Notes: generated from the sequence alone by a model not told the origin. Counted from the stretch's first letter, positions 43,514 to 59,036 are shown. The stretch is DNA of 64,000 nt from Nitrospirota bacterium (GCA_963749655.1 CAVVOB010000038.1:1-64000); one strand, 5' to 3'. A program made the numbers and translations.

Positions 43514-46500
43514 ATGAAGAACAGCGAGACCCATAGGGACGATTTCCGGACAGTGAGTGCCTGGGACCGCACCGTGTACCTGCTTGCTTTTCTTGCGCTC
43601 CTTACAGGACTCTCTATTACGAGCTTGTACAGCTACCCTCTGTTTCACAGCCTTGCCGAATTATTCAGCATCGTTATAGCGTTCGGCATATTCGTCATCG
43701 CCTGGAACTCCCGGCCTTTTCTGAACAACAACTACCTGCTGTTCCTCGGCATAGCCTACCTCTTCGTCGGAGGCCTGGATCTCATTCATACCCTTGCTTA
43801 TAAAGGCATGGGCGTGTTCAAAGTCAACGACGCCGATCACCCGACCCAGTTATGGATCGCAGCCCGTTATCTGCAGAGCCTGTCGCTGCTGGCCGCCCCC
43901 TTTTTCATCGGACGAAGGCTCAATGCCGGCGCCGTGCTGGCCGGATATGCCGGCATCTTTGCTCTGCTGCTGTGGACCATCTTCGGCAGCGATAGTTTCC
44001 CCGTGTGCTACGTTGACGGCACGGGGTTGACGCCGTTCAAGAAGAACAGCGAGTACGTGATCAGTCTCGTGCTGCTGCTGTCCGGAGCAGCGCTGCTTCG
44101 GAGGAAAAGCGTGTTTGAGGGGAAGGTCCTCCGTCTTCTTCTCCTTTCCCTGGCGGCGACCATCGTTTCGGAGCTTGCCTTTACCTTTTATATCGGCGTC
44201 TATGATCTGTCCAACCTGGTAGGGCACCTGTTCAAGATCATAGCGTTCTCTTTTGTCTATCTGGCTATCATCAAAACGGGCATCAAGGACCCCTTTGACA
44301 TCATATTTAGAAGCCTGAAACAGCGCGAGGAGGAGCTGCAGAAAACAAAGACAGGGCTGGAGGTGCGCGTTGCAGAGCGCACCGAGGATCTGAACGCGTC
44401 GAAGCAAATGCTCGAACGGGAGATTGATGAACACAAGCGCACTGAAGAGATGCTGAAGGGACAGTACTCGACCCTGAGCAGCATTCTCGAGGGCGCGAAT
44501 GCACTGATCTTCTCGGTGGACCGGCAGTACCGGTACACCAGCTTCAACTCAGCCCACGCAGCGGTAATGAAGGCCATATACGGCACGGAGATCAGAAACG
44601 GCTGGAGCATACTGGATTTCATGACTGTTCCCGAAGACCGTGAAAAGGCGAAACAGAACCTCGACCGTGCTTTGGGGGGTGAGCGCCATATGGAATCGGC
44701 CTATTCCGGCGAGGACGCGAGGTCCCGGCGGTACTTCGAAGTGTCCCACAGCCCGGTCGTTGCCGACGACGGATCGGTGATCGGCGTGGCGGTGCTGTCG
44801 CAGGATATCACCGACCGCAGACAGGCGGAAGAGGCCCGGCGCAGATACAGCGAGGAGATCGAAGGCCTTTATAATTTCGCCCCCTGCGGCTATCATTCAC
44901 TGGACTCTGAAGGAGTCATTATCCGGATCAACGATACCGAACTCCAGTGGCTTGGTTATGCGCGGGACGAGATCGTGAAAAAATGAGGTTCTCCGATATC
45001 GTAACAGAGAAGAGTCTGCAGGTCTTTCAAGCGAACTTCCCTCTGTTCAAGAAACAGGGCTGGGCGAGAGACCTGGAATTGCGAAATGATACGCAAAGAC
45101 GGGACGCTCCTGCCGGTGCTCCTGAGCGCCACGGCGATCTACGACGAGGACGGCAATTTCGCGATGAGCAGGTCGACCGTCTACGACATCACCAGGCGCA
45201 AACAGGCCGAGGATGCTCTGCGAGAAAGCGAGCAAAAGTACCGCGATATATTCGATAGTGTTCTCGACGGACTGTACCTTCTCCGTGCAGGTCCGGGACA
45301 AACCGCGGTCTCTACGGTACATGGGCCGGGTTGCGCTTCAGTGACCGGCTATGCACCGGAGGACTATGCGGGCGACCCGGGTCTCGGTATCGAATGGTGT
45401 ACAACCGGACCGGCGGAGGTGATCGGGAAGACGTCAGGATCCTGGCAGGCGAAGCGGCATCGCCGCTGGAACACCGGATTATCCACCGGGACGGCTCCCT
45501 GCGCTGGGTGCGGAATACGTCCGTAGCCAGTGACCAGAAACGGCGGCAAATCGGCTACGATGGTCTGATCGCAAAGTATCGCCGGGCGCAAGCGGGCGGA
45601 GGAGCAACTGCGCCCCATCGAAGAGAGATACGGACTCTGGAATCCTTTGACGTCTTTTTATCACCTCACGGGACGGGAAAATCCTCGACATGAACAAAAA
45701 AGGCATTGCGCTATTCGGGTACGACACGAAAGAGGAAGTTTGTCGCCTTGATCTGGAACGGGACGTCTATGCTTATCCGCTGGACGGGAGCAGATCCTTG
45801 CACTCGTTGGGGCGCTGGGCACGGCCGAATATGAAATCATCGTCAAGAAAAAGAGCGGTGAAAGAATAACAGCTCATTGCGCATTGACAGCCGTACAAGG
45901 AGACGACGGTGAGATTACCAGTTACCGGGGAATCATTCAGCGCATCACGGAGCAAAAGCTGGCAGAGGAGGCCTTGCGCCGGCTGAACCGCGAACTGCGC
46001 GCCATCAGCAACTGCAACCAGACCTTGATGCGTGCGACGGACGAGCAGACGCTCCTGAACGACGTCTGCCGCATAATCTGCGATGAGGCCGGCTACCGCA
46101 TGGCGTGGGTCGGCTATGCCGGAGAACGACGAGCAAAGAAGCGTCCGTCCCGTGGCCTGGGCCGGGGTAGAGGATGGATATCTGGCCACCGCCGAGATCA
46201 CCTGGGCAGACTGCGAACGCGGGCGCGGGCCCACGGGAACGGCCATCAGAACCGGAGAGAGCGCCTGCATCACGGATTTTATGACCGATCCGCAGGCCGC
46301 CCCCTGGCGCGAGAATGCCCTGAAGCGCGGATACCGTTCCAGCATCTCCATGCCCCTCAAGGATGAAAGCGGACAAACCTTCGGCGCCCTCACAATCTAT
46401 TCCACTGATTCGAATACCTTCACGCCCGGCGAGCGACGGCTCCTGGAGGAACTGGCTGGCAATCTCGCCTTCGGCATCACGATCCTGCGCGCCCGGATCG

Positions 46501-56252: not shown

Positions 56253-59036
56253 ATGAACATACTTATTGTTGACGACAACCGAGACGACAGAACGGTGCTC
56301 AGGTACATGGTTTCAAAGAACGGCCACCAATCGATCGAGGCGGCGGACGGCCTGGACGGCCTGAAAAAAGCGCGCAGCAGCAGGCCGGACCTGATCATTT
56401 CCGACGCCCTCATGCCCGTGATGGACGGCTTCCAGTTCCTGAGGCAGGTGAAACAGGACCCGGACCTTCGCACGATCCCGTTCATTTTCTATTCCTCCTC
56501 GTACAAGGATTACCAGGACGTTCGGCTTGCCGTTTCACTCGGCGCGGACGCCTACATCATTAAGCCGGTGGAGCCCGTCGAGTTGTGGCGGAAGATCGAA
56601 GATCTCTTGAAGGCCGGCAAGACGGCGGCGAACCCTCCCGTCCCGCTGATCAGGGAAGATGCGGAATACCTGAAGCGATACAGCGAGGTCGTGGCGACGA
56701 AGCTCGAAGAGAAGGTGCGGGAACTGGAACTGACCCTGGAAGGACGCAAGCGGGCTGAGGAGGCGCTTCGGGAAAGCGAACGGAAATACCGGCGGATCGT
56801 TGATACGGCCAGCGAAGGCATCGTGATGCTCGGCCCGGACGCCATGACCACTTTTGTGAACGCGAGGATGGCCGACCTGCTTGGCTATCGGATCGAGGAC
56901 ATGATCGGTCAACCGTTGACCGCTTTCATGTTCGATGAGGATGCTTCCGATCACCTCCGAACAATGGAGGCCCACCGCCTGGGCAAGACGGACCAATATG
57001 AACGCCGGTTCCGCTGCAGGGACGGACGGGCAGTCTGGACCCTGGTGTCGGCCGTGCCGGTCTTCGACGGCGAAAACAAGTTCAGCGGCTCCTTCGGGAT
57101 GTTCACCGACATCAGCACGCGCAAGAAAGCCGAAGAGGACCTGGAGAAAAACGAAAGATTTCTCAATAACATCGTGGAGAACATCCCAAACACGATTTTC
57201 GTCAAGGACGCCGAAACGCTGAGGTTCGTACGATTCAACAAGGCCGGCGAGCAGCTTCTGGGATACTCGCGGGACGAACTGCTCGGGAAAAGCGATTACG
57301 ACTTGTTTCCAAAGGAGATAGCGGATTTTTTTACCGCAAAGGACCGTGAAGTGCTCGGGGGAAAACTACTCGTCGATATTCCGGAAGAGTCAGTCAGGAC
57401 AAAGGACAAGGCCGAGCGCATCCTCCATACAAAAAAGATCCCGATCCTGGATGAAACCGGAAAGCCGCAATACCTCGTCGGGATATCCGAGGACATCACG
57501 GAGCGCAGGCGGGCCGAGGAGTCGATTCGCAAACTCTCCCAGGCGGTCGAACAAAGCCCGGTATCCATCATCATTACCAACGCTTCGGGCACAATCGAGT
57601 TCGTTAACTCCAAATTCACGGAGGCAACCGGCTATTCCCGCGCCGAGGCCCTGGGCCGGAATCCCCGCATGCTGAAGTCCGGCGAAACGCCGGCAGAGGA
57701 GTACCGGCGTCTCTGGAAGACCATCAGCTCGGGCGGGGTGTGGAGCGGCGAGTTCCACAATCGGAAAAAGAACGGCGAGCTGTTCTGGGAGCAGGCAACG
57801 ATCGCCCCGATCAGAAATGCCGACAACGTCATCACCCATTATGTCGCGGTCAAGGAGGACATCACCGGGCGCAAAAAACTCGAAGAACAGCTCCGCCAGG
57901 CCCAGAAGATGGAGGCCATCGGGACCCTTGCCGGCGGAGTGGCCCACGATTTCAACAACATCCTCACCGCGATCATCGGATACGGCACTCTCGTAAAGAT
58001 GAAGATGAAGCACGATGACCCGCAGCATCACCTGCTCGACCAGCTCCTGCTGTCATCGGAGCGGGCCGCAAATCTGACGCGGGGGCTCCTCGCTTTCAGC
58101 AGAAAGCAGGTCCTCAATCCGAAACCGGTCGACCTCAACGACATCGTAAAGAGCGTGGAAAGACTCCTCCGCAGGCTTATCGGCGAGGACGTCGAACTTG
58201 CTATTACGCTTGCCGATACAAATCTCATTGTAATGGCCGATGCCGGCCAGATCGAGCAGGTCCTCATGAACCTTGCTACCAATGCCCGGGACGCCATGCC
58301 GGAGGGGGGGGCGCTCTCCCTTACGACCGAGGACATCGATCTAAAGGAAGGGTTCATCGGCACCCACGGATCAGGCCGACCCCGGAAATATGCCCGGATC
58401 ACCGTTATCGACTCGGGCACCGGCATGGATGAGCAGACACGGGAAAAGATCTTCGATCCCTTTTTCACGACAAAGGAAGCGGGGAAAGGCACCGGCCTCG
58501 GGCTCGCGATCGTGTACGGGATCGTGAAACAGCACGACGGGATCATCAACGTGGAGAGCGAGGCGGGGAAGGGGACTGCGTTCAAGGTCTATCTGCCGCT
58601 CATCGCCACGACAACGGAGCAGGCGCCTGCTGAAACACTACCCCCGCCGCGGGGCGGCACGGAGACGATCCTTCTCGCCGAGGACGATCAGGACGTGCGA
58701 AATCTGACGAAACACGTGCTGCAGGATTTCGGCTACCGCGTCATCGCCGCACAGGATGGCCAGGAGGCCATAGACAGGTACACGGCGCAGGCGGACGATA
58801 TCGATCTCCTGATCCTGGACGTCATCATGCCGAAGAAAAGCGGCAGAGAGGTATACGACGCCGTCAAAGCGGTGCGCAGGGATGCGAACGTCCTTTTCGT
58901 CAGCGGGTATACCGCCGATGTCCTGCACAAGAAAGGCATGTTCGAAGAAGGGATCCAGTTCATTGCGAAGCCGGTGAGCCCCTCGGTGCTGCTGGAAAAG
59001 ATCCGCGAGGTCCTGGATAAGCACCCCTCCGGCTGA
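56253..59036 (+). CDS. Cytoplasmic hybrid kinase REC-PAS3-HisKA-HATPase-REC
   Basis: [44 protein letters not shown] at both ends. Confidence 0.95.

Follow-up and report, generated by a model that had tools for sequence, protein, structure and literature searches.

We analysed a stretch of 64,000 nucleotides from a Nitrospirota bacterium (GCA_963749655.1, CAVVOB010000038.1:1-64000; the window in what follows), whose plus strand carries at 43514-59036 a single co-directional cluster, as judged from open reading frame (ORF) calls and Pfam. In this cluster three sensory proteins and two PhnD-like periplasmic binding proteins alternate ahead of a histidine kinase, a single-domain response regulator and a hybrid kinase (Table 1), and gene starts overlap the preceding stops or sit close behind them. 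We focus on two elements of these proteins: a C-terminal tail common to the three sensors, and an extra segment of the kinase, the receiver coil, located upstream of its phospho-accepting histidine. A first-pass annotation, made by a model from the sequence alone, had proposed that both elements form a heteromeric helical bundle through which several separately encoded sensors feed one kinase.

None of the three sensors contains HisKA or HATPase_c by Pfam (E<=0.01), and all of them end in nearly the same way. The tail follows the consensus RT.ELE.KN.ELERLNK.FVGRELRM.ELK.RIKELE, over whose 41 residues the window copies share 66-73% pairwise identity, and each protein stops 2-7 residues later. 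The first-pass description of three kinase-less sensors with near-identical tails hence holds, as does the statement that two of them are intact and abut the next genes. Indeed, sensors 2 and 3 are uninterrupted frames of 550 and 734 amino acids (aa). The stop codon of sensor 1 (47250-47252) overlaps the next ATG at 47249, that of sensor 2 (49776-49778) overlaps the next ATG at 49775, and that of sensor 3 (52837-52839) lies 20 nucleotides (nt) ahead of the kinase ATG at 52859. Regarding domain content, the PAS-GAF-PAS order assigned to sensor 3 was recovered but the HAMP domain was not (no Pfam match at E<=0.01).

The 999-aa protein encoded after sensor 3 is a histidine kinase, with HisKA at residues 760-827 (E 2.3e-19) and HATPase_c at residues 872-984 (E 1.6e-25). 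Its H-box, SHELRTP, starts at residue 768 (His codon at 55163-55165), and the Ala of the coil motif SQMALTNIVEDLN stands 37 residues ahead of the Ser of this box. When compared with sister kinases from the same loci, the receiver coil appears as an insert of ~21 residues, that is, three heptads, with the rest of the protein retained. This agrees with the extra segment first noticed before the H-box, and is a rarity in the host genome, where the coil motif is found in one of the 35 ORFs carrying an H-box, namely the kinase adjoining the tails. The single-domain regulator and the REC-PAS3-kinase-REC hybrid reported downstream are also in place.

Sensor 1 is a single gene with at least five frame changes between ~44.95 and 46.12 kb, in which halves of PAS domains fall in different frames, and tblastn aligns full-length relatives across these frames. 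The first PhnD-like gene is also broken: two separate ORFs encode PF12974 positions 1-33 and 136-242, and the part between them is out of frame. Window positions 44950-47750 thus hold at least seven frame breaks within ~2.8 kb, and the next 11 kb of the cluster hold none. Such packing reflects either the decay of a first sensor pair or a locally poor assembly. In a survey of sequencing runs, one DNA run contained 0.06 of the sampled words and no RNA run was listed.

The tail and the receiver coil at large

A six-frame scan of the 4.27-Mb assembly with a regular expression and a 31-position hidden Markov model (HMM) found the tail at just the three sites of the cluster, the next match having an E-value of 7. 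To look for relatives elsewhere, we used the last 45 residues of sensor 3 as a query, which yielded 67 length-matched proteins of 405-882 residues. A kinase core (HisKA or HATPase_c) was found in 0/67. Their N-terminal domains are diverse (PAS, GAF, HAMP, dCache, MASE3, SBP_bac_3, REC, PocR and others), and the motif ends 8-27 residues from the C-terminus in 66 of them, the 67th having a variant tail at the same place. We then built a profile from 18 tails (A1) and scored it against 1.84 billion representatives, obtaining 9445 clusters at E<=1e-3 and 1146 at E<=1e-10 (clusters at 50% identity). Among the stored members, the match ends no further than 34 residues from the C-terminus in 210/210 proteins, and an H-box, sought by regular expression, is present in 0/210. 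The 529 confirmed copies in reference genomes belong to Geobacterales, Desulfuromonadaceae, Desulfobulbia, Nitrospirota, Verrucomicrobiota, Treponemataceae, Bacteroidales, Methanoperedenaceae and Methanosarcinales. The tail is therefore a large, unnamed C-terminal module and not a truncation, and relatives of the sensors do not continue into HisKA, as the first reading required.

The first half of the tail is recognizable. It has the LN..LE.RV..RT.EL-type core and the heptad pattern of a signalling helix (S-helix), and profile comparison matches alignment columns 1-33 to the S-helix of the kinase itself (97.1% probability, E 5.6e-11). S-helices have been described as parallel coiled coils that pass signals from domain to domain within a single protein (Anantharaman, Balaji and Aravind 2006, PMC1592074). 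Here, on the other hand, no output domain comes after it in any of the 210 proteins, in which the profile match lies near the C-terminus; what follows is a further conserved coil and then the end of the protein, and terminal or trans-acting forms are unmentioned in the passages of that paper covered here. A comparison restricted to the part beyond the S-helix aligned 10 columns at E 0.085, pairing N.ELERLNK with the AN.KL.ELDRL found just before the dimerization and histidine phosphotransfer (DHp) domain of the kinase; this is not significant, and no relationship of the RELRM part to a DHp helix was detected. We also considered FVG-RELRM as a degenerate H-box and dropped this idea, since the profile comparison aligns the S-helix only and Pfam finds no HisKA in isolated tails even at E<=10.

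Known families did not account for either element. With the tail, Pfam returned generic coiled coils only, all far under their cut-offs and including bZIP_2 at E about 1-2; NCBIfam gave nothing over cut-off; the sole match of a PDB profile search was the S-helix stretch of 6k4e (E 0.016); and matches in the ESM Atlas were limited to unnamed clusters, 46-52 residues long and scoring <0.9. With the coil, the PDB profile search gave no match at E<=1.

A word search for the kinase coil identified 5 proteins among 68 candidates, and coil kinases were instead taken from fetched loci. Relatives of the window kinase share the coil region behind varying sensor domains, and the coil precedes two DHp types, one of them with the H-box SHDLRAPLR. 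In 34 of 38 cases from fetched loci the coil lies exactly 37 residues before the H-box, the remaining distances being 58 or 65. Coils off this spacing are seen at L122:2607 onward, L009:18423-19856, L017:9985-13179 and L040:17724-19205, where 21-28 extra coil residues or, in L122, a PAS domain separate them from the H-box. Given this variable spacing and the intervening PAS, the coil behaves as a movable linker module. By charge the two elements differ, with an acidic consensus coil and a slightly basic tail.

Genomic coupling, matched classes and adaptors

Across 71 reference-genome loci, tail genes are arrayed on one strand, with at most 8 per array, and arrays lie directly upstream of coil kinases. 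A same-strand coil kinase is present in 36/71 loci, and in 28 of the 38 in which 5 kb or more remain after the last tail gene. The 10 loci making the exception come from 9 genomes, each of which encodes a coil kinase at another place.

We further measured co-occurrence in samples of 64 genomes from the class of the window and 401 from its phylum, with a tail threshold of >=50 bits. The phylum sample comprises 14 genomes with both motifs, 5 with the tail only, 8 with the coil only and 374 with neither; the tail is thus present in 19 genomes, and the coil in 21, a count that rises to 22 with G017 (E 1.1e-6). In 13 of the 14 genomes with both motifs, tail and coil share a contig and strand, the coil following a tail 1-4 kb further downstream. 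These loci share a cassette composed of tail sensors, sometimes together with PhnD-like genes, a coil kinase, a single REC and a REC-PAS-kinase-REC hybrid. An independent order-level sample of 151 genomes around a Geobacter-type genome gave 26 genomes with both motifs, none with the tail only, 2 with the coil only and 123 with neither, 5 of the 26 positives having already been found among the reference-genome loci. Read from the listed places, the coil is on the contig and strand of the tail in 22 of these 26 genomes, which hold 97 tail matches vs 31 coil matches; a single genome can have up to 11 tail matches. Co-occurrence across genomes and adjacency, with tail genes upstream of the coil kinase on the same strand, are what the first-pass annotation had called for.

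The two elements also vary together. In three loci we found a tail of the form FVGREFRIKEL(R/K)DK together with a coil of the form AL(T/Q)(Y/F)L(I/L)ED(A/V)N. Taking this pattern as a prediction, we fetched 80 new metagenome loci using a profile of REFRIK tails only, and every such locus with a kinase coil had a coil of the Y/F type. After deduplication, 72 coil proteins were available from tail-bearing loci, five of them in three mixed loci (L149, L168 and L158). In RELRM-only loci, 42 coils are N-type, none is Y/F-type and one is of another kind (ALVSLLEDV). In REFRIK-only loci, 23 are Y/F-type, one is N-type and none is of another kind; the N-like coil is a weak 18-bit match located upstream, and its locus contains a proper Y-type kinase as well. 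RELRM tails are hence paired with AL.N(I/L)V(E/D)D coils in 42/43 cases, and REFRIK tails with AL.(Y/F)L.ED coils in 23/24. N-type coils are followed by SHE-type DHp domains in 34 cases and by SHD-type in 8, and Y/F-type coils by SHD-type in 16 and by SHE-type in 5. In the 13 cases with the minority DHp type, tail class tracks coil class rather than DHp type. In a tree of the region comprising the DHp and the catalytic and ATP-binding (CA) domains of 61 kinases, built after exclusion of mixed loci and truncated kinases, the fewest changes needed are 8 for coil class, 7 for tail class and 1 for DHp type.

A third tail class was also observed, reading ...MN.LMV(G/D)RE(I/L/V)(K/R)M.ELK.EINELLK..G.E.KY, with a stop always exactly 12 residues past the conserved EIN. 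Five copies share arrays with REFRIK tails (L101:2415-5681 and L150:10242-18123). It has no RT.EL S-helix motif ahead, is absent from the genome of the window, and no matching coil partner was identified for it.

Some proteins carry both elements. In two of the mixed loci, L149 and L168, a sensor contains a Y-type coil (ALQYLLEDVN) and, 29 residues further on, a C-terminal tail of the RELRM type. In both cases REFRIK-tail sensors lie to one side of this protein and an N-type-coil kinase to the other, and no other Y-type coil is present in the locus. Both are sensors in their own right, one with PAS-PAS inputs and the other with Tll0287-like-GAF-PAS. Searching with the coil-plus-tail region yielded ten proteins of this architecture, representing four input sets, and two Y-type kinases; one of the ten matches the L149 protein over the stretch printed. 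Adaptors were thus counted twelve times in all. The simplest reading is that the coil of such an adaptor would serve as its input port and the tail as its output plug.

Besides the coil kinases, a highly conserved hybrid kinase of ~1200 aa (HAMP-like, GAF, a Gln-rich coil with LLEQTQQQTEELRVQQEELQQTNEELEE, HisKA and three REC) recurs within or after tail arrays (Table 1). It may be a second partner of the tails or part of the relay.

The docking reading and its alternatives

We consider it probable that the tail acts as a plug for the receiver coil of the kinase and docks there, so that separately encoded sensors control a single kinase. Each sensor would be an ordinary sensory protein, with membrane or HAMP regions and PAS or GAF inputs, ending where a DHp domain would otherwise start. 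The plug would consist of the S-helix LN..LE.RV..RT.EL followed by ~4.5 heptads, KN.ELERLNK.FVGRELRM.ELK.RIKELE, and then the stop; the socket would be the three-heptad segment that the kinase carries between its own signalling helix and its DHp. A dimeric plug would pack on the dimeric socket just above the phospho-accepting His, and a conformational change in the sensor would reach the DHp/CA core as it does from a sensor linked in cis. Sensors of one plug type would share a single socket or compete for it, so that the kinase could integrate many inputs before passing phosphate to the single REC and the downstream hybrid kinase. Specificity would lie in a few exposed residues, RELRM going with AL.N(I/L)V(E/D)D and REFRIK with AL.(Y/F)L.ED, and sensors with a Y-type coil and a RELRM tail would chain the two classes.

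In simple heptad scoring of the tail, F19, M26 and I33 take position a, R22, L29 and L36 take position d, and the invariant E-L-R falls at e, f and g. In the coil, whose exact register is unstable in this scoring, the Asn and the neighbouring M, V, E and D fall off the a/d core. Since the residues that switch between classes (L to F in the tail, N to Y/F in the coil) lie off the core positions, they are likely exposed; together with the acidic coil and the slightly basic tail, this favours lateral docking of a dimeric tail on a dimeric coil. What the data show is conservation, terminal position, co-occurrence, synteny, matched classes and adaptors, and from these we infer the physical contact itself, the geometry of the bundle, and the direction and sign of regulation. 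Prediction of a complex between two kinase segments spanning S-helix, coil and DHp (A4) and two tails (A3) gave a score of 0.01 against a mark of 0.32, the fold of the partner being uncertain, an outcome that weighs neither in favour of binding nor against it. The plug-in reading of the first-pass annotation is supported overall, with the contact and the heteromeric bundle as its putative part, and it is strengthened by the matched classes and the adaptors, which it had not foreseen.

Several observations weigh against docking. Of the coil-positive genomes, 8 of 22 in the phylum sample and 2 of 28 at order level are coil-only, and they have the same kinase-REC-hybrid cassette without tails, so that the coil does not require tails. 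Two of the tail-only genomes are nearly or fully complete: G359 (96%) has three tails followed by the HAMP-GAF hybrid kinase with the Gln-rich coil, and G311 (100%) has a tail sensor followed by a gene for a TonB-dependent receptor. The other three comprise two fragments at contig edges (one of 70 aa) and one doubtful 52-bit match. From these exceptions, tails are nearly always accompanied by a coil kinase, but the converse fails. There is also partial circularity in the coil profile (A2), which was built from tail-adjacent kinases, four of them from genomes of the phylum sample. As for the classes, only 3 of the 8 coil-class switches are on well-supported branches; these three all agree with the tail class, which in a sign test gives p = 0.25. 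With so few independent switches, the 65-to-1 class table largely counts relatives, and matched variants alone are no proof of contact because genes of the same operon share ancestry. Finally, one locus (L082, G276:C60) combines a REC-containing tail protein with FVDRELRMRELK and a kinase with the coil ALVSLLEDVN, an odd pair that may be an intermediate or a further class.

Shared ancestry is also the basis of the alternative that sensors and coil kinase belong to one pathway while tail and coil never touch, both being joined by a third component or simply co-inherited as operon markers. The target of the tails could then be the REC, the hybrid kinase or some other product encoded nearby, for instance the HAMP-GAF hybrid kinase that frequently lies within tail arrays. 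Such an arrangement would fit with the REC ORF located directly after 50/72 coil proteins, with the recurrence of the Gln-rich-coil kinase, which directly follows the tails in the coil-less G359, with coil kinases that have no tails and with class agreement resting on three well-supported independent switches. We nevertheless think it unlikely, though worth keeping in view: the two coils are the only elements common to all systems, in which sensor domains, DHp type and downstream genes differ; the adaptors have coil and tail, but neither kinase core nor REC, at the exact position of a relay; and neither the conserved residues nor those that switch with class occupy core heptad positions, which is what an interface would lead one to expect. 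The resemblance of the tail to the kinase S-helix (97% probability over columns 1-33), the weaker one between N.ELERLNK and the segment before the DHp (E = 0.085) and the excess of tails over coils (97 vs 31 matches) could also be explained if S-helix and tail replaced one helix of the kinase in a mixed dimer, making the sensor a dominant-negative or titrating subunit. However, the likeness past the S-helix is not significant and such S-helices are common to very many kinases, and a mixed dimer leaves the three-heptad insert and its co-switching non-core residues unexplained, which makes it quite improbable.

We regard as very improbable that the tail has an output of its own, be it bZIP-like DNA binding, self-assembly, or a localisation or turnover signal. 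Its basic, leucine-containing heptads and weak Pfam coiled-coil matches, bZIP_2 among them, are in line with this idea, but those matches are far below cut-offs, many tail sensors are membrane proteins, and nothing in it predicts a near-obligate coil kinase, matched classes or adaptors. An origin of the sensors by truncation or decay of kinases, or by faulty assembly, hardly deserves credence and would hold for the frameshifted sensor 1 only. It is true that this gene and the first binding-protein gene are frame-broken, but the tail is strongly conserved and marks the same end point in thousands of clusters, and two of the three window sensors are intact, with stops coupled to the next start. 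These conserved ends and intact genes refute truncation as a general explanation, in agreement with the first-pass view that the sensors are not cut short by error.

The docking reading can be compared with known systems. In chemoreceptor-CheW-CheA arrays, many separate kinase-less receptors use one conserved cytoplasmic module to address a single histidine kinase. The cluster is similar in having many kinase-less sensors with different inputs, a shared module and one kinase. Contrary to chemoreceptors, though, no methyl-accepting chemotaxis protein (MCP) signalling domain, CheW or CheA is found in the 8 proteins of the cluster or among the precomputed domains of the 67 relatives; the shared module is a terminal coil of ~40 residues instead of a long hairpin; and the partner is an ordinary HisKA kinase with its own sensor domains and a dedicated insert. 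One tail relative is named McpB by its source, which lists HAMP only.

Multikinase networks of the GacS/RetS type reportedly rely on helix-helix contacts near the DHp, with partners that are kinases or pseudokinases retaining DHp and CA, each case being idiosyncratic. They are comparable in that several sensory proteins converge on one kinase (PMC5992135). In the present case, by contrast, the sensors have no kinase core, and the motif pair is short, widely reused and split into two matched classes. Split histidine kinases are divided between the DHp and the catalytic parts. They also spread kinase functions over several polypeptides (PMC3591291). Here it is the input that is encoded separately, since HisKA and HATPase_c are on one chain and the sensors have neither. 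In LuxP/LuxQ and TorT/TorS, a separate periplasmic binding protein signals to the sensor domain of the kinase itself. The PhnD-like proteins encoded ahead of sensors 2 and 3 probably act in this way on the membrane sensors, whereas the tail-coil pair is cytoplasmic and lies beside the DHp. Polyketide and non-ribosomal peptide synthases have docking domains, short terminal helices whose matched classes decide which modules pair. This is an analogy only, with no sequence relationship, and those domains order enzymes while tail and coil would transmit a conformational signal.

The cluster is thus not a member of the chemoreceptor, multikinase, split-kinase or docking-domain systems. No paper on either motif or on the architecture was found in the literature covered, the main text of openly available papers, in which the motif strings gave one unrelated match, and no known Pfam, NCBIfam or PDB family was matched by the motif parts of tail or coil. 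This suggests that what is new is the wiring through tails of kinase-less sensors, within two-component systems with auxiliary inputs, themselves a known kind.

Output-less PAS, GAF and HAMP proteins are very common in annotations. If the tail is a plug, 9445 clusters would gain a function and a predicted partner, two-component signalling would include a modular, trans-acting way of combining inputs, with about three sensors per kinase on average, and the matched classes and adaptors would amount to a small specificity code. Whether this extends to a general and orthogonal plug-and-socket coiled-coil code in bacteria and archaea, with at least two matched classes, a third tail class and daisy-chaining adaptors, we would call an even chance. 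Such a code would provide a role for thousands of output-less 'PAS domain S-box proteins' and a set of ready-made orthogonal connectors for the engineering of sensor kinases.

Further features of the locus

Table 1. Coordinates of the cluster and related features (window positions unless a locus is named)
Feature	Position	Strand	Basis
Sensor 1: MASE3, several PAS, two GAF, type-1 tail	43514-47252	+	ORFs/translations; Pfam MASE3, PAS_4, GAF_2
Sensor 1, in-frame 3' part: GAF-GAF-tail, last 389 codons	46083-47252	+	ORF
Tail 1 (type 1, RELRM), 46 residues up to the C-terminus	47112-47249	+	Regular expression, HMM, 76.5 bits
PhnD-like periplasmic binding protein gene 1, broken	47249-48129	+	PF12974 pieces in separate ORFs
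Sensor 2, 550 aa, intact: N-terminal membrane region, HAMP, Cys-rich PAS region, PAS, type-1 tail	48126-49778	+	ORF, Pfam
Tail 2 (type 1)	49644-49775	+	Regular expression, HMM, 72 bits
PhnD-like periplasmic binding protein 2, 290 aa, intact	49775-50647	+	Pfam PF12974, E 4.6e-41
Sensor 3, 734 aa, intact: membrane region, PAS, GAF, PAS, type-1 tail	50635-52839	+	ORF, Pfam
Tail 3 (type 1)	52714-52836	+	Regular expression, HMM, 82.6 bits
Histidine kinase, 999 aa: N-terminal sensor region, PAS_3, PAS_4, S-helix, receiver coil, HisKA, HATPase_c	52859-55858	+	ORF, Pfam
Receiver coil (type N), 40 residues, containing SQMALTNIVEDLN at 55040-55078	55007-55126	+	Profile match, 72.9 bits
Single-domain response regulator (REC)	55824-56201	+	Pfam; conserved directly 3' of coil kinases
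CckA-like hybrid kinase, REC-PAS x3-HisKA-HATPase_c-REC	56253-59036	+	Pfam; third cassette member, conserved in the phylum of the window
Hybrid kinase of ~1200 aa, sites in fetched loci	L008:4944-8648, L013:2959-6666, L017:2243-5977, L025:1-3624, L039:1543-5232, L058:1336-3453, L083:3634-7278		

PhnD-like (PF12974) genes precede membrane-bound tail sensors both in the window (47249-48129 and 49775-50647) and in other loci (L076, L083 and L088). In one genome such a gene precedes the coil kinase itself, and in some tail proteins the domain is fused in (P0024, P0222). This placement suggests binding-protein-dependent sensing, and PhnD-like protein 2, which is below cut-offs in NCBIfam, is likely a co-sensor of the membrane sensor that follows it, as judged from family and gene order.

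In the first PAS-like region of sensor 2 (window 48990-49050), a Cys-rich stretch with the spacing C-x12-C-x2-C, CWQSLQSGQSGPCGYC, could be a metal or cofactor site. Directly upstream of the cluster, at 41362-42003, a stand-alone PAS protein of 213 aa is encoded, which has neither tail nor output domain. The other flanking genes are non-signalling and include those for a glycogen-branching-type enzyme, a DUF4382 protein and a major facilitator superfamily (MFS) transporter.

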